This document shows positions 52,520-64,000 of a DNA stretch of 64,000 nucleotides, one piece after another. Each line of letters begins with the position of its first letter. Position 1 is the first letter of the stretch. The notes below the pieces were generated by a model. The model made no database searches. It was not told the DNA's origin and saw nothing but the letters and a program-made list of their open reading frames with translations. This stretch comes from Escherichia coli (GTDB lineage: Bacteria > Pseudomonadota > Gammaproteobacteria > Enterobacterales > Enterobacteriaceae): assembly GCF_041248615.1 (NCBI RefSeq), contig NZ_CP158426.1. One strand, given 5' to 3'. A program made the position numbers and the translations under genes.

Positions 52520-52600
52520 AACCAAACGACTCGGGGTGCCCTTCTGCGTGAAGGCTGAGAAATACCCGTATCACCTGATCTGGATAATGCCAGCGTAGGT
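52520..52600 (+). ncRNA. TPP riboswitch aptamer (thi-box) of the thiM leader
   Basis: AACCAAACGACTCGGGGTGCCCTTCTGCGTGAAGGCTGAGAAATACCCGTATCACCTGATCTGGATAATGCCAGCGTAGG matches the recalled E. coli thiM TPP aptamer; similarity ends at about 52600. Confidence 0.85.
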
Positions 52601-52654
52601 TGCCAACATTCTGATTAGTATTCATGTGGTTACATTTCTTTTTGTCCGTGTGTA

Positions 52655-53986
52655 ATGCACCTAATGTACAAAAAGAGCGTAAACATGAGGTACAAAACTC
52701 TTCCATACACGTTTCAAAGAAACGGTAATTACTATCTACAGATTCGGCTTTCGAATGGTCGGATGTATAAAAAATCACTTCTCACTGACAGCTATCGTGA
52801 AGTCTCTGCTTTGATGATTGGTGTTGCTCCGTACATTCCTTTTGTTAAATCATTAGCCATCACAATCCCGATGTTTGATGCCTTTGTTTCAAACCTGATT
52901 ATGTCAAAACTTAGGGCTGTAAAAGTTCCGCTGCTATCACATCAGTCGGTAATTACCCCTGCTACATTCGAGGAACCAGCGACACAAGCCGAACCGCAAA
53001 ACATGCTAACTCTTTCTGATGCGTGGGCTATGTATAAAGCGGAAAAGGGTAAAACATGGACAAAGTCGATCTCAAGGGCGAATGAGCGTTACATGGAAGT
53101 CTTGATGGTTGTCTTGGGAGAGACAACTGACGTAGTTGCGATTTCTAAGCAGGACATCAAGCAGGTGATGGAAGTTGTTGAGAATTTGCCTAAGCGTGTT
53201 GTCCAACCGTATCGCTCAATGAACATCCAGCAACTGATTGAATGTGATGATGTATCACCGAATGAGTTAGTAGGAGTGGAAGCCATTCATAAGCATCTCA
53301 AAATCTACAAATCGCTTTTCAAGACTTTTCTAACAGAAAACAAAGATATTTTGATTAAATCCCCAACTGATGGGGTAGTAGCAGCACCATCTAAAGCAAG
53401 GTTTGGAGCATACAGTTCGGCGGAGATGAAGAAGTTTGTAGAGTGGGCACTTAAGCAGCCAGATGGCTGGCAGAAGTGGATAACATTGTTGTTGGCATAC
53501 ACAGGAGCCAGAAGGGGAGAAATTGCCAAACTGGAAAAATCACAAATAAAATATGATGAGGATAGCCATCGGTATTATTTCCTGATTGCAGAAGGAGGGC
53601 AGGGGAAAACCGAAAATGCTACCCGACAAGTAGTGATACACCCTAAGTTGATCGAATGGGGTTTCATGGAATACGTTGATCGCCAGTGGAAAGAACGGAT
53701 TTTTTCAGAAGTGGCTGGTACAAACATGACGAAGATCGGTAAAGAATTTGCTGATGTGCGTGACCAGCTTGACATTCCGTACTTAGACGATTTTGGACAG
53801 CGGAGGCTTTTGCATAGCATTCGTCATTCTGTTTGCTCTACTGCGATGGCTGGATGGGTAAAGAACATCTTGCATCTGCAACAAACAGTAGGCCATGAGA
53901 AAAGTGGAGGGATCACTAAACGCTACTTACATACGTTCCCACTATCATCAATTTGTTATGTTATTGATGGGATTAGTTGGGTCTGA
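52655..53986 (+). CDS. tyrosine-type site-specific integrase (island integrase)
   Basis: C-terminal catalytic box LHSIRHS...GH...Y (R-H-R-Y tyrosine recombinase motif); true start may be the Met at 52685. Confidence 0.75.
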   Translation: MHLMYKKSVNMRYKTLPYTFQRNGNYYLQIRLSNGRMYKKSLLTDSYREVSALMIGVAPYIPFVKSLAITIPMFDAFVSNLIMSKLRAVKVPLLSHQSVITPATFEEPATQAEPQNMLTLSDAWAMYKAEKGKTWTKSISRANERYMEVLMVVLGETTDVVAISKQDIKQVMEVVENLPKRVVQPYRSMNIQQLIECDDVSPNELVGVEAIHKHLKIYKSLFKTFLTENKDILIKSPTDGVVAAPSKARFGAYSSAEMKKFVEWALKQPDGWQKWITLLLAYTGARRGEIAKLEKSQIKYDEDSHRYYFLIAEGGQGKTENATRQVVIHPKLIEWGFMEYVDRQWKERIFSEVAGTNMTKIGKEFADVRDQLDIPYLDDFGQRRLLHSIRHSVCSTAMAGWVKNILHLQQTVGHEKSGGITKRYLHTFPLSSICYVIDGISWV

Positions 53987-54203
53987 AACTGCTAAGAATG
54001 ATAGGAAAAGCTACTTAATGATCCTTAGTTTTGGATGAAATTGAAGATTACAAAGATCTTGAGCGAATAAGAGCGTTTTTTAATCAAAAAAGCCATAAAA
54101 ACTTTTCTTGACTGTATATTAACACAGTGCTTCTACTATGTAGAAGAAATCGACATGAAAAATTTGATATGGTAAATTTTATCCATGATAACAAAAAGGT
54201 ATT

Positions 54204-55106
54204 GTGGATATGTTACTACCAATACGAGTTCATAAACGATTTCTAACTTTATTTAAGACTTTGCAAATTGACGATTGCCCACCGCAATCAACTTTAAATA
54301 TTCATGTACTTAATATCGAAAGCAATGAATTTATATACTGTAAATTAGTTGAAGAATTACGTGACATAATAATTACTTATGTACATTCGAATAGAAGGCT
54401 TGAGGAGTTTAAGGAAAGTTATCCTTCGTATAGCCCTAAACCTTTTTTCGAAGCAATACAAAAATTTCGCAATTATACGTCAAACGAAGGTGAGTTAGGT
54501 GAACTGCTTTTATACGCTTTTCTTGAAACAGGACTAAATGCTCCGAAATTACTTTCCAAAATGCAATTGAAAACAGATTCTAATGATTACATTAAGGGTT
54601 CTGATGGTGTACATCTGTTAGAATTAGATGATGGTTATCAATTAATATTTGGAGAATCAAAGCTCTATGCCGATCTTTTAGAAGGTGCTCGAGAAGCGTT
54701 TGATTCTATTTTAGATTTTAAAAGTAATGGAATGGCATTTGAAAGAGGGCTGATAGATACACACGTTATAAATGAAATGGTTTCAGAAGAAGGTTATGAG
54801 AAAATAAAATCAATTCTTCTTCCTTCTTCTGGCGATGATGGGCCAGATCTTGATTTATCCTTTGGTATATTTCTTGGTTTTGAATTGAAAATAGATAGCT
54901 CACAGTTATCATTGAAAAACAAAGAGTTTAGAGATTGGGTTAATGAGTCCGTGAAACAACATGCTACTCGCGTGGTCAGTACGATACGAAGGAAAATTAT
55001 TAATCATAAATTATATGGTCACGAATTCCACATATATATAGTTCCTTTTACCGATATTGATGTTACACGAAAAAAATTAATTCATGAAATGCTAACAATT
55101 AAGTGA
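54204..55106 (+). CDS. PD-(D/E)xK-like putative nuclease, HamA-like (Hachiman-type effector candidate)
   Basis: 300 aa; motif ELDDGYQLIFGESK (D...ExK); stop overlaps the start of the downstream helicase gene by 4 nt; low GC, island context. Confidence 0.5.
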   Translation: MDMLLPIRVHKRFLTLFKTLQIDDCPPQSTLNIHVLNIESNEFIYCKLVEELRDIIITYVHSNRRLEEFKESYPSYSPKPFFEAIQKFRNYTSNEGELGELLLYAFLETGLNAPKLLSKMQLKTDSNDYIKGSDGVHLLELDDGYQLIFGESKLYADLLEGAREAFDSILDFKSNGMAFERGLIDTHVINEMVSEEGYEKIKSILLPSSGDDGPDLDLSFGIFLGFELKIDSSQLSLKNKEFRDWVNESVKQHATRVVSTIRRKIINHKLYGHEFHIYIVPFTDIDVTRKKLIHEMLTIK

Positions 55107-57691
55107 ACACTATGAATGAATTAAATTCAAGTAAAAACATTCATTTGGCAGCTCGTCTTGCAGATGATGCTTTTGAAAGTGCTTATTTTAAAGAAATCAA
55201 TAAGTTTATAAGTGGTTTATACAATTACAGTTTATTTAACTGCGATTCAGATGTTAGTCTCTCCGAGAGTGATAACAATAAAATAGCACACGCTTTGCGT
55301 TTTGCAGATATATTTTCACATTCTTCAAAAGAAAATCATAGATCATGTGCATTTGAAATTATAAGTAGAATAGCCTTATTAAAAAAACATGATCCTTATT
55401 TTAAATTTATAGGTACTGCTGTTATTAATCGGCTTGGGGTTTATGCAGCAGAAAAACTCATATCAAAAGGGGTAAAATTACCCTTAGATAGAGAAGTTGA
55501 TTCTATTATTAAAAAATCAGTTCAGAAAACAGATGAAGATGGAGTATATTTCACTGATAAACAACATGAGTTATACAAACTTTTAAAAAGTAGCAAAACA
55601 ATTAGTTTTGCTGGTCCCACTTCGATGGGAAAGTCATTTGTTATTAATGCATACATTAAGGAAATAACTCTTAAAAAAGAGCTTAAAAATATAGCTTTAA
55701 TTGTTCCTACACGGGCTTTAATAAGCCAAAATGCACTTAAGTTAAAAATTGATATTGCATTGTATAAGAATGAAAGCCCTTATAAAGTTGTTACGACATC
55801 CTACATTATTAATGGTGATGAAAGTAAAAATAAAGGCTATATTTTTATTCTCACCCCAGAAAGGCTGGTTAGTCTCATAAGCACTATTCCTGGACTAATG
55901 ATTGATTATGTTTTTGTAGATGAAGCTCAAAAGTTAACAACAAAAAATGATTCGAGGAGTCTTGTTACTTATTCAGCTATAGAGCAAACAATTAGTAAAA
56001 ATCCTGAGGCAAGATTATTCTTCTCTTCACCTAATTTATCTAATCCTGAAATATTTAATATTTTGTTTGATAGAAAAGACGCTTCGGTATATAGAAATAC
56101 AGAAGGTGCAACTACTCAGAATATGTATTTTATTGATCTTTTAAATAGCAGCTTTAGCTATGTTAATACCGAGAAAAGGACGCTTGAAAAAATAGATGAG
56201 ATCTCTAATACTTACACGAATACAAATGATGTTATCTATAAATTAAATAATGGTAAAAGTAAAATAATTTATTGTGGGGGGATAGAAAGCACGCTTGAGA
56301 GAACACGTAGCTTTATCAATTATCTCAAAATTAATAAGAAAAAAAGAAAGCATTTAAATTTAGAAATATCTTCTGAGATAAGAAACTTTGTTCATGATAA
56401 CTATGAACTTGCAGAAGCCATCAACTATGGTGTTGCTTTCCACTTTGGAAACTTGCCTCAATCGATTCGAGATTTAATTGAGCATCATTTCAAAATAGGA
56501 AATATTGACTATCTATTCTGTACATCAACCCTACTTGAGGGAGTCAATTTACCTGCAAGATCCGTATTTATTCTTACGCATAAAAAAGGCCCCAGTCCAT
56601 TAGAGTCGGTTGATTTTTGGAATCTGGCTGGGAGAGCTGGGCGATTATCTATGGAATTGTCAGGGGATATTTTTTGTATTAGGGATGATAATAAGCTTTG
56701 GAATAAAAAAGCTGTTGATAATATCCTTCTGTCTGACAAAAATAACATTTCATTAAAGCCAAGCTTCTATATTGAAGACGAAAAAAGATTGAACGATTTA
56801 CACCATATAATTACGACTGGTAAAACAGGGAATATTAAAAATGCTGAGTTCCTTAGAACTTTAGGAGATATGATAAGAATAGACACTCTGAGGGATTCTA
56901 AAGAACTTCCTCTTATTAGTTATTTCCAAAGCAGTGGAAAATCAGAAATTTTGTTAAGTGCAGAAAAAAGCACTGAAAATATTACCATGCCAATGAATAT
57001 CCTTTTGGCAAATAGTCATATTGCGATTGATTCGCAGTATCATGCTTTTAAAAAAATAAAAAGCCTTACAGTTAAGGAACTGAAATTATCATGGCAGCCT
57101 ACATACGAAGAAATTAAAGAAAAATTGAATTTGATATTCGATATTTACCAAGTTGAAAAGTTTGCAACAGGTAGAGAACGTCTTTATTTAAATTCAATTC
57201 CATATTATGCAGTATTACTGTTTCAATGGATTCGTGGAAATAGTCTACAGGAAATTATCTCGGGGGCAATTGCTTATAGAAAGAACAAAAGTATATATAT
57301 TAAAAATACACCTGTTCTTTTTGACAGCGAAAACCCAGCTCATTTAACTGCATTAGTTAATGAAACTATAAAAGACATTGAGTTGCGTGTAGGTTACCAG
57401 TTACAAAATTATTTTTCACATTACTGTCAGCTTCTGAATTATGTGTTACAAGGAAATCCAGGGGCAAACTGGTCTCAGTTCATTGAGTTTGGCTCTAATG
57501 AGCCAATAGTATGGCACCTACAAATGATGGGCTTTTCAAGGGATAGTGCAGTTTTTCTCAAGAAGAATTTTTCAAAACATCTTAAACTTGATAATGAAAT
57601 GAATAAACTCATCATAATGGATAAGGAACTGATCAAGCGTTCTTTCAAAAAAGATGGACTACATTACTTAGAAATCCAATCGTTATTATAA
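55103..57691 (+). CDS. SF2 helicase, HamB-like (Hachiman-type helicase candidate)
   Basis: 862 aa; Walker A AGPTSMGKS, Walker B FVDEAQK, SSP motif, motif V TSTLLEGVNLP and motif VI AGRAGR. Confidence 0.55.
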   Translation: MNTMNELNSSKNIHLAARLADDAFESAYFKEINKFISGLYNYSLFNCDSDVSLSESDNNKIAHALRFADIFSHSSKENHRSCAFEIISRIALLKKHDPYFKFIGTAVINRLGVYAAEKLISKGVKLPLDREVDSIIKKSVQKTDEDGVYFTDKQHELYKLLKSSKTISFAGPTSMGKSFVINAYIKEITLKKELKNIALIVPTRALISQNALKLKIDIALYKNESPYKVVTTSYIINGDESKNKGYIFILTPERLVSLISTIPGLMIDYVFVDEAQKLTTKNDSRSLVTYSAIEQTISKNPEARLFFSSPNLSNPEIFNILFDRKDASVYRNTEGATTQNMYFIDLLNSSFSYVNTEKRTLEKIDEISNTYTNTNDVIYKLNNGKSKIIYCGGIESTLERTRSFINYLKINKKKRKHLNLEISSEIRNFVHDNYELAEAINYGVAFHFGNLPQSIRDLIEHHFKIGNIDYLFCTSTLLEGVNLPARSVFILTHKKGPSPLESVDFWNLAGRAGRLSMELSGDIFCIRDDNKLWNKKAVDNILLSDKNNISLKPSFYIEDEKRLNDLHHIITTGKTGNIKNAEFLRTLGDMIRIDTLRDSKELPLISYFQSSGKSEILLSAEKSTENITMPMNILLANSHIAIDSQYHAFKKIKSLTVKELKLSWQPTYEEIKEKLNLIFDIYQVEKFATGRERLYLNSIPYYAVLLFQWIRGNSLQEIISGAIAYRKNKSIYIKNTPVLFDSENPAHLTALVNETIKDIELRVGYQLQNYFSHYCQLLNYVLQGNPGANWSQFIEFGSNEPIVWHLQMMGFSRDSAVFLKKNFSKHLKLDNEMNKLIIMDKELIKRSFKKDGLHYLEIQSLL

Positions 57692-59125: not shown

Positions 59126-59485
59126 TCATTCAGAACGATCAAGTACCATATATGCTGGCTGACACATGCTGCCCCGCTCCTGTAGCCAGTAGTAATCAAG
59201 ATCGGCAACACGCACGTCCAATCCAGAATCTACACGGTTGATCTGTAACCGTAGCCCTACAGTATCCTTGTACGATAAACCAGATTTAACATTGTATTTG
59301 TACTTAACACCGTTTTCCTGTTCAAACTGTTTAAGGAAAGGCGTCATTTGTTTCTGAATTTCTTTCAAACAAATAACCTCATTATCAATAGCAAAGGGGG
59401 GTTCTGTTTTTCCATCAGGTACAGCAGCCTGTAAATGAAAGGAAGTACTCAACAATAACAGCATTGCAACAGAAGTCTTTTTCAT
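59126..59485 (-). CDS. small secreted protein of unknown function
   Basis: 119 aa; cleavable signal peptide MKKTSVAMLLLLSTSFHLQA; 43 nt downstream of the membrane protein gene. Confidence 0.6.
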   Translation of the reverse strand: MKKTSVAMLLLLSTSFHLQAAVPDGKTEPPFAIDNEVICLKEIQKQMTPFLKQFEQENGVKYKYNVKSGLSYKDTVGLRLQINRVDSGLDVRVADLDYYWLQERGSMCQPAYMVLDRSE

Positions 59486-59528: not shown

Positions 59529-60569
59529 TTAATAACAATATTTTATATTTCCTTCGGGTTTTCTCATGCATTTAATTCCTTCAGGAATATAATCAGTTAC
59601 GGGAGCAGGTCTGGCATCAGGTCTTGAAAGACGATTGGATATAGAAGACAACAGACTGAAAACACACTCATTAAATGATTTTTGATATTTATTTTTTTCA
59701 TAAAAGTACTGCATGGTGATTTTATCTCTTTCGTATTGCAATTCTTTGCCAAGCTGAATCCTATCCATATCAATTCCATTTCTCATAGCATTAAATCTTT
59801 CGTTCAATAAATTAAATTGAGATTTATTCCATTCATTTAAAGGAAATAAAGAATTGTTAAGCCTTTGCCTACAATTAGATTGCTCGATAGCTGACATGTA
59901 TTCTTTCATACTAACGCCAATATCTAAGTATGTGAGTTGTCCAGCAGTTCTATCAACTGAGTTATTAGGGTAAGATTTAATTTCAGTAAGTATTGACTCT
60001 GTTAATACTGCATTTTCTTCTAAATCTTTGCTAATAGTTATTTGAGCTTGTTCTCTTTTATCCTTATCAAATATTGAAATGTATTTCTTTACTATATCCT
60101 GATTAGCTTTCTCGGCTGCTACTAACGCATCTTGAACCTTCTTTTCCGCCGCTTTAACTCGTTGTTCTTCTACAAATTTCGCGTAGTCATCAGTATTTGT
60201 AATGTGATTTTCACGAGCGATAGAAAACTCTTTACTATCTTTAAAACCAAGTTTTTGTGCTCTGGCTCCATCGCTTGAAGATCGGGCAGAACTTGCCACG
60301 AAAGCGAGCACAATGATCAGTACAGGAACCGTATAATTATTAACGAGTTTATAGGGTAAGAACTTCGCTTTAAGCGTACCATAACCCAAAACAGCCCAGC
60401 CTATCGCGGCAGTACTTGCCAGTAGCTGGCACAATCCAGCGACGGAAAGCATGATTACCGACCAGAAGCCTGTACCGACTGCGAAAAGATCACCAAATTT
60501 CTCCATTGACGCAAGGAATAAAAACACTCCCCAAATGCCATAAAATCCTATTTTCAAATATTTACTCAC
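59529..60569 (-). CDS. 3-TM membrane protein with large charged coiled-coil-like C-terminal domain, unknown function
   Basis: 346 aa; three N-terminal hydrophobic helices followed by a K/E/Q-rich soluble domain. Confidence 0.6.
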   Translation of the reverse strand: MSKYLKIGFYGIWGVFLFLASMEKFGDLFAVGTGFWSVIMLSVAGLCQLLASTAAIGWAVLGYGTLKAKFLPYKLVNNYTVPVLIIVLAFVASSARSSSDGARAQKLGFKDSKEFSIARENHITNTDDYAKFVEEQRVKAAEKKVQDALVAAEKANQDIVKKYISIFDKDKREQAQITISKDLEENAVLTESILTEIKSYPNNSVDRTAGQLTYLDIGVSMKEYMSAIEQSNCRQRLNNSLFPLNEWNKSQFNLLNERFNAMRNGIDMDRIQLGKELQYERDKITMQYFYEKNKYQKSFNECVFSLLSSISNRLSRPDARPAPVTDYIPEGIKCMRKPEGNIKYCY

Positions 60570-61552: not shown

Positions 61553-63028
61553 TCATTTTTTGCTTTTTTGTACTTCCTTTTCGTATTTGTTCCACATAGC
61601 CTTTTGCTCTTCGGGACTGAGTGCTGTATTACCACTGGCAAGAAACACCTTGAACGCTTCTAACTCAAGCCCTGGGTTGCGGCTTTTCCAGCGGCGAAAA
61701 CGCTTAGCGTGATTATCATCAAGAGTGAAACGCTTTTGCTTATTCTTTGAACCTTGCGGCCTGCCTCTCGACCTCTGCTCATCATCAATACCGATATCTA
61801 TATACTCAATATTATCTGTAAGAGATCTGGCTTGCCATTCATCAAAAACATAAACAGTCTGTGTTTCAGTACTGTCAAAATCCCTTGAAATTCCTCGTAG
61901 TACGAACTGGTGTAAACTTTCGTACTCCCTCGCAACATGTATCGCCTCGCCGTCAATCTCAAAGAACAATTCGCACTGTTTAGCCTCTGTTTCAGAGGGA
62001 CGCATACAAGCGAGCCAGACGCACGTGAGCAAGTGTTGGTACTGGTTAAACCCTCTGGCATCCGGGCTTATCTCTGTGCCGTTTTTGAGGCTCTGAGAAT
62101 CGCTTTTGTTCTTCGTCCAGTAGAAATCCTGTCCCTCAAGTTTTTTATCAATAAATGAGTATATTTTTTGTACTTTATCAGGGTTATTAGTCTTCCATGT
62201 CTTCGATAGTTTTTGATTTTTTGAGAAGTAATAAACCTTTAATCTGTCTTTGAGAGCTGTTTTTCGTGTCAGTAATCCTCCAAGTTCAGTACTTTCAAAG
62301 AGTTCTTTATTGCCTTTATAGATCAATGAATTTTCGAAATTAGCTCCGAGAAAGGTGATTGATACGTCTTTGTACTTACTGAGATCTTTCCATGCGGTAA
62401 TATTAAGCTGTTCCTTTTTCGCATCGGTAAAGTACTCATTATTCATGATGAACATATCATTTTCGTTAATTGCTGGTAGCTGGTTCAAAATATTCTTCAG
62501 TACTTCCCCTTGTATTTCTGGTTTTCTTTCTGCCGCAATATACATATTTTTATCATCTAATGTCAGTACATTGTGTATTAATGAATTAAGAATTGTATTT
62601 TTTATATTAGTATCACCCTCATTAATATTCTGAAAAGAGTGAAAATTAGTAACGTCGTCAATATAAATATTACAGTCAGATAACAATTCAGGAGGAATTT
62701 TGAAAAACGTTTTATCTGTTATGAGTAATGTTTTATTACTTCCAGATGAAAGAAAGTTAATAACTGAATTAATAACACTTTCATCTTTTGGTACTGTATC
62801 TGTAATTATATACTCGCAATTATTGATTTGCTTTGCTGTCTGCTTAATAAGTTCTTGAGTGTTCTGTACTAAAATATATTTTTCAGTACTGTTATTGATT
62901 ATATTGCATATAGCAGTAGTTTTACCTGAACCACAAGGGGCGGAGACATACTTAAATTTATTATAAATAGGTGTGGGATTAATCATTTGTACACGCTCCA
63001 TATTGATTAATGTAGAAAGGTCAGCCAT
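61553..63028 (-). CDS. P-loop NTPase with C-terminal AT-hook (RGRP-GSKNK) DNA-binding tail, unknown family
   Basis: 491 aa; Walker A APCGSGKTT near the N-terminus, candidate Walker B NIYIDDV; C-terminal RSRGRPQGSKNKQKR matches the AT-hook consensus. Confidence 0.6.
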   Translation of the reverse strand: MADLSTLINMERVQMINPTPIYNKFKYVSAPCGSGKTTAICNIINNSTEKYILVQNTQELIKQTAKQINNCEYIITDTVPKDESVINSVINFLSSGSNKTLLITDKTFFKIPPELLSDCNIYIDDVTNFHSFQNINEGDTNIKNTILNSLIHNVLTLDDKNMYIAAERKPEIQGEVLKNILNQLPAINENDMFIMNNEYFTDAKKEQLNITAWKDLSKYKDVSITFLGANFENSLIYKGNKELFESTELGGLLTRKTALKDRLKVYYFSKNQKLSKTWKTNNPDKVQKIYSFIDKKLEGQDFYWTKNKSDSQSLKNGTEISPDARGFNQYQHLLTCVWLACMRPSETEAKQCELFFEIDGEAIHVAREYESLHQFVLRGISRDFDSTETQTVYVFDEWQARSLTDNIEYIDIGIDDEQRSRGRPQGSKNKQKRFTLDDNHAKRFRRWKSRNPGLELEAFKVFLASGNTALSPEEQKAMWNKYEKEVQKSKK

Positions 63029-63359: not shown

Positions 63360-64000
63360 TGGATTTGCCCCTATATTTCCAGACACCTGTTATCACTTAA
63401 CCCATTACTGGCCTGCTGCCGCAGATATTCCCGTGGCGAGCGATAACCCAGTGCACTATGCGGATGCCATTCGTTATAATGCTCGAACGCCTCTGCAAGG
63501 TTCTTTGCTGCCGTTAACCCGTCTGGTTTAGGCATGATACTGATGTAGTCACGCTTTATCGTTTTCACGAAGCTCTCTGCTATGCCGTTACTCTCCGGAC
63601 TCCGCACCGCCGTGTTCTTCGGTTCAAGCCCCAATATCCGGGCAAACTGCCGTGTTTCATTAGCCCGGTAGCATGAACCATTATCCGTCAGCCACTCTAC
63701 TGGAGACGCCGGAAGCTCGTTGCCGAAGCGGCGTTCCACCGCTCCCAGCATGACGTCCTGTACTGTTTCACTGTCGAAGCCGCCCGTAGTGACTGCCCAG
63801 TGCAGTGCCTCACGGTCACAGCAGTCCAGCGCGAACGTGACTCGCAGTTTTTCTCCGTTATCACAGCGGAACTCGAACCCGTCAGAGCACCATCGTTGAT
63901 TGCTTTCTTTCACGGCCACTTTGCCAGTATGTGCCCGTTTCGATGGCGGTACAGCGGTTTTTCGCTCAAGCAACAGCGCATTCTGGCGCATGATCCGGTA
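63360..64000 (-). mobile_element. IS2 (IS3 family), partial; right terminal inverted repeat at about 63360, element runs past the window end
   Basis: terminus TGGATTTGCCCCTATATTTCCAGACA matches the recalled IS2 end; encoded protein matches the recalled IS2 InsD (OrfB) C-terminus. Confidence 0.85.
63371..64000 (-). CDS. insD: IS2 transposase OrfB (InsD), 3' portion; 5' end beyond the window
   Basis: translation ...[39 protein letters not shown]...[19 protein letters not shown] matches recalled InsD (DDE integrase core). Confidence 0.85.

Follow-up and report, generated by a model that had tools for sequence, protein, structure and literature searches.

The hamA–hamB gene pair

In a 64,000-nucleotide stretch of Escherichia coli DNA (NCBI RefSeq assembly GCF_041248615.1, contig NZ_CP158426.1; hereafter, the window), the last 17 kb of which is E. 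coli chromosome, we analyzed a pair of genes, hamA and hamB, that matches the Hachiman family of anti-phage systems. Two open reading frames (ORFs) of 300 and 862 amino acids are present at 54204–57691, as an initial annotation made from the letters had placed them. The first, hamA (54204..55106, plus strand), encodes the predicted effector, a HamA/DUF1837 PD-(D/E)xK nuclease, recognized from its ORF, from PADLOC, Pfam, and RefSeq, and from an AlphaFold2 (AF2) model compared with solved structures by Foldseek. The second, hamB (55103..57691, plus strand), encodes the predicted sensor, a Ski2/Hel308-like superfamily 2 (SF2) helicase, recognized from its ORF, PADLOC, Pfam, and a match to chain B of PDB entry 9WH1 (9WH1_B). 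The GC content at hamAB is 31% (range 29–33%) compared with ≈50% in the flanking core genes; at 31% GC, where each codon has a stop probability of 0.083, the probability that chance would keep a frame open for 300 or 862 codons is ≈1e-11 or ≈1e-32, respectively. The hamAB region is 100% identical to that of strain NRZ14408 (NZ_LT599825.1). RefSeq, annotated by the Prokaryotic Genome Annotation Pipeline (PGAP), labels the hamA product (WP_192459686.1) "HamA C-terminal domain-containing protein" and the hamB product "DEAD/DEAH box helicase." Because PADLOC, Pfam, and RefSeq already recognize the pair, its detection here is not new.

For hamA, two start codons are plausible: GTG 54204 (MDMLLP, as called in Serratia), giving 300 residues, and the ATG at 54210 chosen by PGAP, giving 298. 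HamB has 862 residues if read from GTG 55103 and 859 if read from ATG 55112. The initial annotation described the genes as coupled through a 4-nucleotide (nt) overlap, and this overlap (GTGA) exists only with the GTG 55103 start; the PGAP start at ATG 55112 leaves a 5-nt gap instead. Because the N terminus of the Serratia HamB, MSENNPKKNIQL, aligns to the ATG 55112 start, MNELNSSKNIHL, and not to the upstream GTG, the overlap is probably not real. What survives of that claim is the tight abutment of hamA and hamB, which holds whichever hamB start is used. A weak candidate for a sigma-70 promoter (TCGACA-17-TAAATT with TG upstream, found by consensus scan) lies at 54150..54178 on the plus strand, in a region where promoter-like sites are not enriched (17 versus 19.5 expected from shuffles). 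Because the upstream neighbors differ in other taxa, hamAB probably has a promoter of its own. Terminator-like sites number five in the region, against 1.9 expected, and the region scan yielded no convincing terminator directly 3′ of hamB among them.

The same two-gene arrangement, a HamA of ≈298 residues followed by a HamB of 855 to 862, recurs in Serratia, Methanococcoides vulcani, and Paenibacillus, where the spacing is a 5-nt gap, a 1-nt gap, and an 11-nt overlap. The neighbors of hamAB in these three taxa are mutually unrelated and include integrases, recombinases, and AbiGi, and no third gene is conserved beside hamAB in any of them. Compared with Serratia, the ratio of nonsynonymous to synonymous substitution rates (dN/dS) is 0.068 for hamA and 0.071 for hamB by the Nei–Gojobori method, values that are approximate since dS is saturated but clearly far below 1. 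Judged by these ratios, both genes are under strong purifying selection. Clusters at 90% identity hold hundreds of members in E. coli, Klebsiella, Enterobacter, Serratia, Lelliottia, Cronobacter, and Pectobacterium.

The exact hamAB locus is rare, occurring in eight of 5,426 complete E. coli genomes, each copy at least 99.7% identical, and this rarity would fit a pair of decaying genes with no current function in the strain. The same reading can draw on damaged copies found in some genomes and metagenomes: HamB is truncated to 744 residues (versus 859) in two metagenome/Sequence Read Archive (SRA) contigs (L014 and L017), and its annotation is split in strain A37. Such copies suggest recurrent inactivation and, possibly, a fitness cost. 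In the window, however, neither ORF is shortened when compared with the profiles and 9WH1_B, the catalytic motifs are all intact, and dN/dS is ≈0.07, so that an inactive remnant is exceedingly improbable.

HamA and HamB families, motifs, and predicted fold

The HamA sequence, numbered here in the 300-residue form (GTG 54204 start), matched 21 HamA models in PADLOC, the best being HamA1 (PDLC00156, E = 2.4e-120), in an alignment that pairs residues 3 to 297 with positions 1 to 297 of the 298-position profile. It also matched the Pfam HamA/DUF1837 family (PF08878, E = 1.4e-62) over residues 47 to 282, covering positions 2 to 230 of the 230-position model; the NCBIfam collection holds no HamA model. 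HamB, numbered in the 862-residue form, was matched best in PADLOC by HamB1 (PDLC00176, E = 8.3e-296; profile positions 2–845 of 845), contains the Pfam domains DEAD, Helicase_C, and ResIII, and reached the NCBIfam Hel308 model only below threshold. The initial annotation had drawn the HamA(DUF1837)/HamB assignment from architecture and had named a DUF1837 profile search of the first protein and a HamB profile search of the second as ways to check it. Both searches matched, and the family assignment is borne out end to end in the two PADLOC alignments.

To locate the HamA active site, we aligned 32 homologues with 40 to 98% identity, drawn from Enterobacterales, Bacteroidota, Leptospira, Paenibacillus, and the archaeon Methanococcoides. 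Invariant in all of them are E97 and E100 (in NEGELGE), K115, K119, and K123, D134 and H137 (in GSDGVH), and E151 and K153 (in FGESK, residues 149–153). The PD-(D/E)xK motif had initially been read as ELDDG...FGESK. Its E-x-K half corresponds to the invariant E151/K153 and stands; the acidic half was misassigned, because the ELDDG residues (140–144) are not conserved and vary among the homologues (ETND, SLSD, KVGD, and others), and the invariant acidic residue is D134. D134, E151/K153, and E97/E100 are predicted from this conservation to make up a D-E(x)K site, whose core, from NEGELGE through GSDGVH to FGESK, is encoded at 54483..54662 on the plus strand as delimited by invariance in the 32 homologues and by the model described below. 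The resulting pattern, G-E/D-x-x-E ... D ... E-x-K, is equivalent to residues mutated in three other systems: D90, E93, D127, E147, and K149 of Streptococcus thermophilus HamA, all essential by mutagenesis (PMC13064477), E138/K140 of the E-x-K in HamA from E. coli ECOR31 (PMC12278908), and E150/K152 of HamA from E. coli DEC14B (PMC11914072).

An AF2 model of HamA built from the alignment has a predicted local distance difference test score (pLDDT) of 89.5, a predicted template modeling score (pTM) of 0.90, and an αβββα core topology. In the model, E97 and E100 lie on a helix spanning residues 95 to 108, which is followed by three strands bearing K115, D134, and E151-x-K153; the strands of the active-site core span residues 133 to 139 and 142 to 152. 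A Foldseek search of the PDB placed three HamA chains at the top, 8ZUE_A (E = 1.8e-6), 8VX9_A (E = 6.3e-5), and 8VXY_A (E = 1.3e-4), all with a probability of 1.00. The lower matches, each below significance, were FokI, N.BspD6I, arenavirus cap-snatching endonucleases, Cap4, SduA, SwaI, and HincII, all of them PD-(D/E)xK enzymes. The model thus predicts a PD-(D/E)xK restriction-endonuclease-like fold for HamA. The HamA chains at the head of the ranking, followed by FokI and the other PD-(D/E)xK enzymes, gave a positive outcome to the structural check that had been proposed for the first protein.

HamB carries the full set of SF2 helicase motifs that had been claimed for it. A script search located motif I (Walker A; GPTSMGKS) at residues 171 to 178 (55613..55636), motif II (DEAQ) at residues 273 to 276 (55919..55930), a motif III-like SSP at residues 308 to 310 (56024..56032), and motif VI (AGRAGR) at residues 509 to 514 (56627..56644), all on the plus strand; with ELDDG and FGESK in HamA, every string quoted in the initial annotation was found. 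The FSSPN surrounding motif III is identical in 9WH1_B, and motif VI is conserved there. 9WH1_B is the closest solved HamB, and since the match (E = 3e-120) runs over residues 20 to 860 of 862, it fixes the architecture of HamB. More distantly, HamB matches chain B of 8ZUE (AbpB; E = 3.7e-23) over the RecA core, and it is also related to the Hel308, Ski2, and Pol-theta helicases. The HamB of ECOR31 (8VX9_B) is matched over only ≈87 residues of RecA2 (435–521; E = 2.4e-5), more weakly than the eukaryotic Ski2, Brr2, and Pol theta proteins.

Placement among Hachiman systems and proposed mechanism

Hachiman type I, whose source is reportedly Doron 2018, is recognizable in each feature of the locus. 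The hamA gene lies directly upstream of hamB on the same strand, its product is a DUF1837/HamA domain protein with a predicted PD-(D/E)xK fold, and the second product, an SF2 helicase, has its ATPase motifs intact and is recognized by HamB profiles. HamC (DUF3223), the protein that marks type II as opposed to type I, was not detected by PADLOC among the neighbors of hamAB, nor was any other defense-model match; the flanking genes encode an integrase and a serine recombinase. The PADLOC rule places the locus in Hachiman type I, and the scheme of PMC11914072 in subtype I-A, as its HamA consists of the DUF1837 domain only and keeps the (D/E)xK site. The two abutting co-oriented genes, the DUF1837-only HamA with its D-E(x)K residues, the Ski2-like HamB, and the lack of HamC are all shared with type I-A systems, and nothing differs at the family level, although the tested example, that of E. 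coli DEC14B, belongs to another lineage. Because the E150/K152 numbering of DEC14B nearly equals E149/K151 here in the 298-residue form, we considered whether the two systems are the same and rejected this: the Walker A GKT of DEC14B HamB occupies residues 272 to 274, compared with GKS at residues 176 to 178 here. The accessions of the ECOR04 and ECOR28 Hachiman systems (Tuck et al.) were absent among the contigs carrying the exact protein, with similar places collapsed into one. Family membership is secure, and we regard it as very probable that hamAB is a known Hachiman type I (I-A) anti-phage operon carried as cargo of an integrase island at the thiM thiamine pyrophosphate (TPP) riboswitch.

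HamB has its nearest characterized relative in the trypsin-HamAB/MBL helicase, not in those of ECOR31 or DEC14B. Entry 9WH1, identified through the data-availability section of the preprint, is the trypsin-HamAB complex of this Hachiman-MBL system (PDB 9WH1/9WHK/9WHU; bioRxiv 10.1101/2025.09.03.673762). In that complex, HamB comprises RecA1 and RecA2 with an insertion, as well as mainly α-helical N- and C-terminal domains, the N-terminal domain binding the DUF1837 domain (bioRxiv 10.1101/2025.09.03.673762). A GKS Walker A and a DE motif II occur in both helicases, and the C-terminal third of HamB here aligns to the mainly α-helical C-terminal domain of 9WH1_B. The full-length homology between the two is what points to a HamA–HamB heterodimer in our system.

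This closeness raises the question of whether HamA here is a mere scaffold, with another protein as the effector, as in trypsin-HamAB/MBL or in the Cap4-HamA fusion of AbpAB (type I-B). Besides the helicase, the HamA side lends this idea some support, as the DUF1837 domain of trypsin-HamAB, which is inactive, is the only PDB HamA reached by sequence (subclade profile, E = 7e-30; not 8VX9_A or 8ZUE_A). Unlike that protein, however, which bears a trypsin-like domain at its N terminus and no longer has the nuclease residues, HamA here has no extra N-terminal domain (the PADLOC profile covers residues 3–297) and keeps the invariant D-E(x)K residues; the aligned catalytic positions read GFHGAH/IHSAAF in 9WH1_A and GSDGVH/FGESK here. 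Trypsin-HamAB acts through a distinct effector, an MBL nuclease switched on by proteolysis, whereas no trypsin, MBL, or Cap4 gene adjoins hamAB and no third gene is conserved beside it in other taxa. Of the features of Hachiman-MBL, namely an N-terminal trypsin domain, a dead DUF1837 domain, and an adjacent MBL gene, none is present, and the resemblance is confined to HamB.

The comparison with AbpAB of E. coli K-12 (type I-B; PDB 8ZUE; PMC11914072, PMC10732053) is similar. AbpA shares the HamA-like DUF1837 domain and AbpB is a related helicase, but in AbpA an N-terminal Cap4-type nuclease domain is fused to a catalytically dead DUF1837 domain, an arrangement absent from HamA here, and AbpB, at 729 residues, lacks the regions matching the N- and C-terminal parts of HamB. 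A scaffold role for HamA is therefore very unlikely, and relative to 9WH1_A, the HamA of this type I-A operon would, on its aligned residues, be the active version. A related suggestion, that this lineage is the nuclease-active ancestral form of the trypsin-HamAB/MBL branch with activation rules unlike the "HamA release" of ECOR31, strikes us as doubtful though far from negligible. Under it, the rules could include an ATP-bound autoinhibition relieved by hydrolysis or an oligomerization on 3′-overhang DNA.

With ECOR31 HamAB (PDB 8VX9/8VXA/8VXC/8VXY; Tuck et al., PMC12278908; "type III-A" of PMC13064477), our system has in common the two-component logic, the HamA fold (Foldseek probability 1.00; TM ≈0.5), a Ski2-like HamB, and the catalytic E-x-K, with E138/K140 of ECOR31 equivalent to E151/K153. 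The two helicases differ markedly. ECOR31 HamB has 1174 residues compared with 859 to 862 here, carries a C-terminal OB-like barrel, and has DEGH rather than DEAQ as motif II, and the similarity is limited to the ≈87 RecA2 residues. The ECOR31-type clade is defined by a close relation to ECOR31 HamAB and by a long HamB whose C terminus forms an OB-like domain; neither was found here. The caution in the initial annotation that the pair could be a divergent or distinct module was thus unneeded at the level of the family and partly justified below it, given the distance from ECOR31.

Several points weigh against the assignment to an anti-phage operon of known type and against carrying its details over. 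We found no paper testing this hamAB orthologue and no direct experimental representative of its sub-lineage. The mechanistic paradigm, ECOR31 HamAB, is only remotely related by sequence; its HamA (8VX9_A) went undetected by phmmer or profile and was reached by fold only. The published systems also differ in what the active nuclease is (released HamA or HamAB) and in what triggers the ATPase (3′ single-stranded DNA [ssDNA] or double-stranded DNA [dsDNA]), and because of this disagreement and the remoteness of ECOR31, both the trigger and the activation step are extrapolated for this lineage. Finally, the 744-residue HamB of some E. coli copies shows that the system is dispensable or costly.

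Because the catalytic elements of both activities are intact, we assign the published Hachiman logic to this system, with steps taken from work on other Hachiman systems. In ECOR31, HamB holds HamA in check on intact dsDNA, and a 3′ ssDNA end or DNA damage sets off ATPase activity and helicase ratcheting, upon which HamA is liberated or activated, all DNA is degraded, and infection aborts (PMC12278908). By itself, HamA shows no activity in the K-12, DEC14B, and S. thermophilus systems, where the nuclease is the HamAB complex and ATP binding stimulates it (PMC11914072, PMC13064477). Phage resistance by abortive infection and activation by DNA damage have been reported for the ECOR31, DEC14B, K-12, S. 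thermophilus, and Bacillus cereus systems (PMC12278908, PMC13064477, PMC11914072). By analogy, HamA and HamB here would form a 1:1 complex through the N-terminal helical domain of HamB, and HamB, as a Ski2/Hel308-like 3′–5′ DNA helicase, would scan DNA and respond to the free 3′ ssDNA ends or the DNA damage that phage replication produces. An ATP-driven conformational change in HamB may then license the D-E(x)K nuclease of HamA, which would degrade phage and host DNA indiscriminately, sacrificing the infected cell to abort the infection. Our confidence that the shared logic would apply here is high, and that in the exact trigger and activation step is moderate.

A mobile island at the thiM riboswitch

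The hamAB genes lie in an island of 12,585 bp inserted between rcnR and thiM, which extends from position 52600 to beyond the window end at 64000. A tyrosine integrase is encoded at 52655..53986 on the plus strand (PGAP start 52685; phrog_1 integrase, E = 1.3e-25, and RefSeq), and this integrase always accompanies hamAB of this type in E. coli contigs. To its left, at 52520..52599 on the plus strand, lies an 80-bp direct repeat, the attL core, which corresponds to the 5′ portion of the thiM TPP riboswitch aptamer; an identical right copy lies upstream of thiM, just past the window end (L001 24982–25080). The Rfam TPP model scores 58 bits at 52522–52617 for the left copy and 71.2 bits for the thiM-proximal copy. 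Across three strains, the thiM-proximal copy, in which helix P1 is preserved, scores 71 to 74 bits, and the integrase-proximal copy, lacking the 3′ strand of P1, scores 58 to 63 bits or falls below threshold. In sister elements at the same site, the only differences between the island-borne 5′ aptamer half and its native counterpart lie upstream of P1 and in the P3 loop. Much like tRNA-targeting islands, which restore the target they enter, this island appears to supply its own copy of the 5′ half and thereby regenerate a working riboswitch; the near-native 5′ half of the sister elements is consistent with this. The native thiM promoter now faces the integrase gene, and expression of thiMD must depend on a promoter supplied by the island.

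Sister elements occupy the same rcnR–thiM site in E. coli TB06052, ETEC1732, EC21Z-063, and TC24 (L002–L005), with integrases of 75 to 84% nucleotide identity. Directly after the integrase they carry different cargo: an AAA ATPase with a hypothetical protein; a hypothetical protein with an 871-residue TIR-domain protein; or an ImmA/IrrE and "beta family" cluster. One of them, a possible phage satellite, encodes a major capsid protein. The thiM site looks like a hotspot for the defense cargo of a mobile-element family. Across 5,424 complete E. coli genomes, we counted ≈247 extra aptamer copies, from which ≈4% of complete E. coli genomes may carry something at the site. A literature search found nothing relevant on integration at the thiM riboswitch or on a defense hotspot there. 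In TB06052 (L002 11600–14000), additional genes separate rcnR from the left aptamer copy, and just ahead of that copy is sequence similar to an island right end, which suggests that two elements have accreted in tandem.

That in E. coli hamAB always travels with one integrase and resolvase backbone could mean that the helicase–nuclease pair serves mainly to maintain or stabilize the island, or acts in DNA repair or recombination rather than in phage defense. The kinship of HamB with the repair helicases Hel308 and Pol theta agrees with such a role, and Hachiman is toxic upon DNA damage (PMC12278908), which could in principle amount to an addiction function. Against it, homologues of the pair are found in other, unrelated contexts where this backbone is missing, the sister islands hold other defense-like cargo, such as the TIR-domain protein, in the same slot, as in a defense hotspot, and all Hachiman systems tested so far protect against phage. 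We judge a primary maintenance or repair role to have little likelihood next to phage defense.

The island ends carry repeated (G)GTACA motifs (window 52666–52672 and 52690–52696; L001 24872 and 24896) that are conserved in the sister elements and are candidate arm-type integrase binding sites. One of them overlaps the start codon that PGAP gives the integrase (ATG 52685), and the motifs could allow autoregulation of the integrase gene. Downstream of hamAB, all on the minus strand, are a 119-residue, secreted-looking protein with a signal-peptide-like N terminus (59126–59485), a 346-residue putative membrane or coiled-coil protein with N-terminal hydrophobic segments (59529–60569), and a 491-residue P-loop protein with the Walker A APCGSGKT (61553–63028), which RefSeq labels "DEAD/DEAH box helicase family protein." None of the three has a PADLOC match, and their PHROG matches are only to families of "unknown function"; for the P-loop protein, the sole match is PHROG 2467 (E = 1e-38). 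Near the right end of the island lies an IS3-family transposase with a programmed frameshift, identified by RefSeq (63371–63991 and beyond, minus strand). Among short-read assemblies, stand-alone contigs begin or end at the integrase and measure 11,306 bp (L016 and L018), 11,112 bp (L017), 11,482 bp (L015), and 12,027 bp (L014), roughly the size of the island minus one IS3 copy. This suggests that the island in the other samples, at ≈11.3 kb, may lack the IS3 copy. The contigs fit a repeat-bounded unit at which the assembly graph breaks; an excised circle is another possibility.

As a Hachiman locus, hamAB is one more catalogued example and changes little, apart from the fact that a reading of the raw sequence alone recognized it as a defense module. 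Its value lies rather in being an orthologue within a widespread lineage (Enterobacterales, Bacteroidota, Leptospira, Paenibacillus, and methanogenic archaea) whose HamA is, by its conserved residues, probably active, which makes this HamAB lineage a sensible comparator for the conflicting activation models. The searchable literature yielded no published description of the thiM-riboswitch island family, and the carrier island is more interesting than hamAB itself, as an element that appears to rebuild the thiM TPP riboswitch and swaps defense cargo in the slot beside its integrase.

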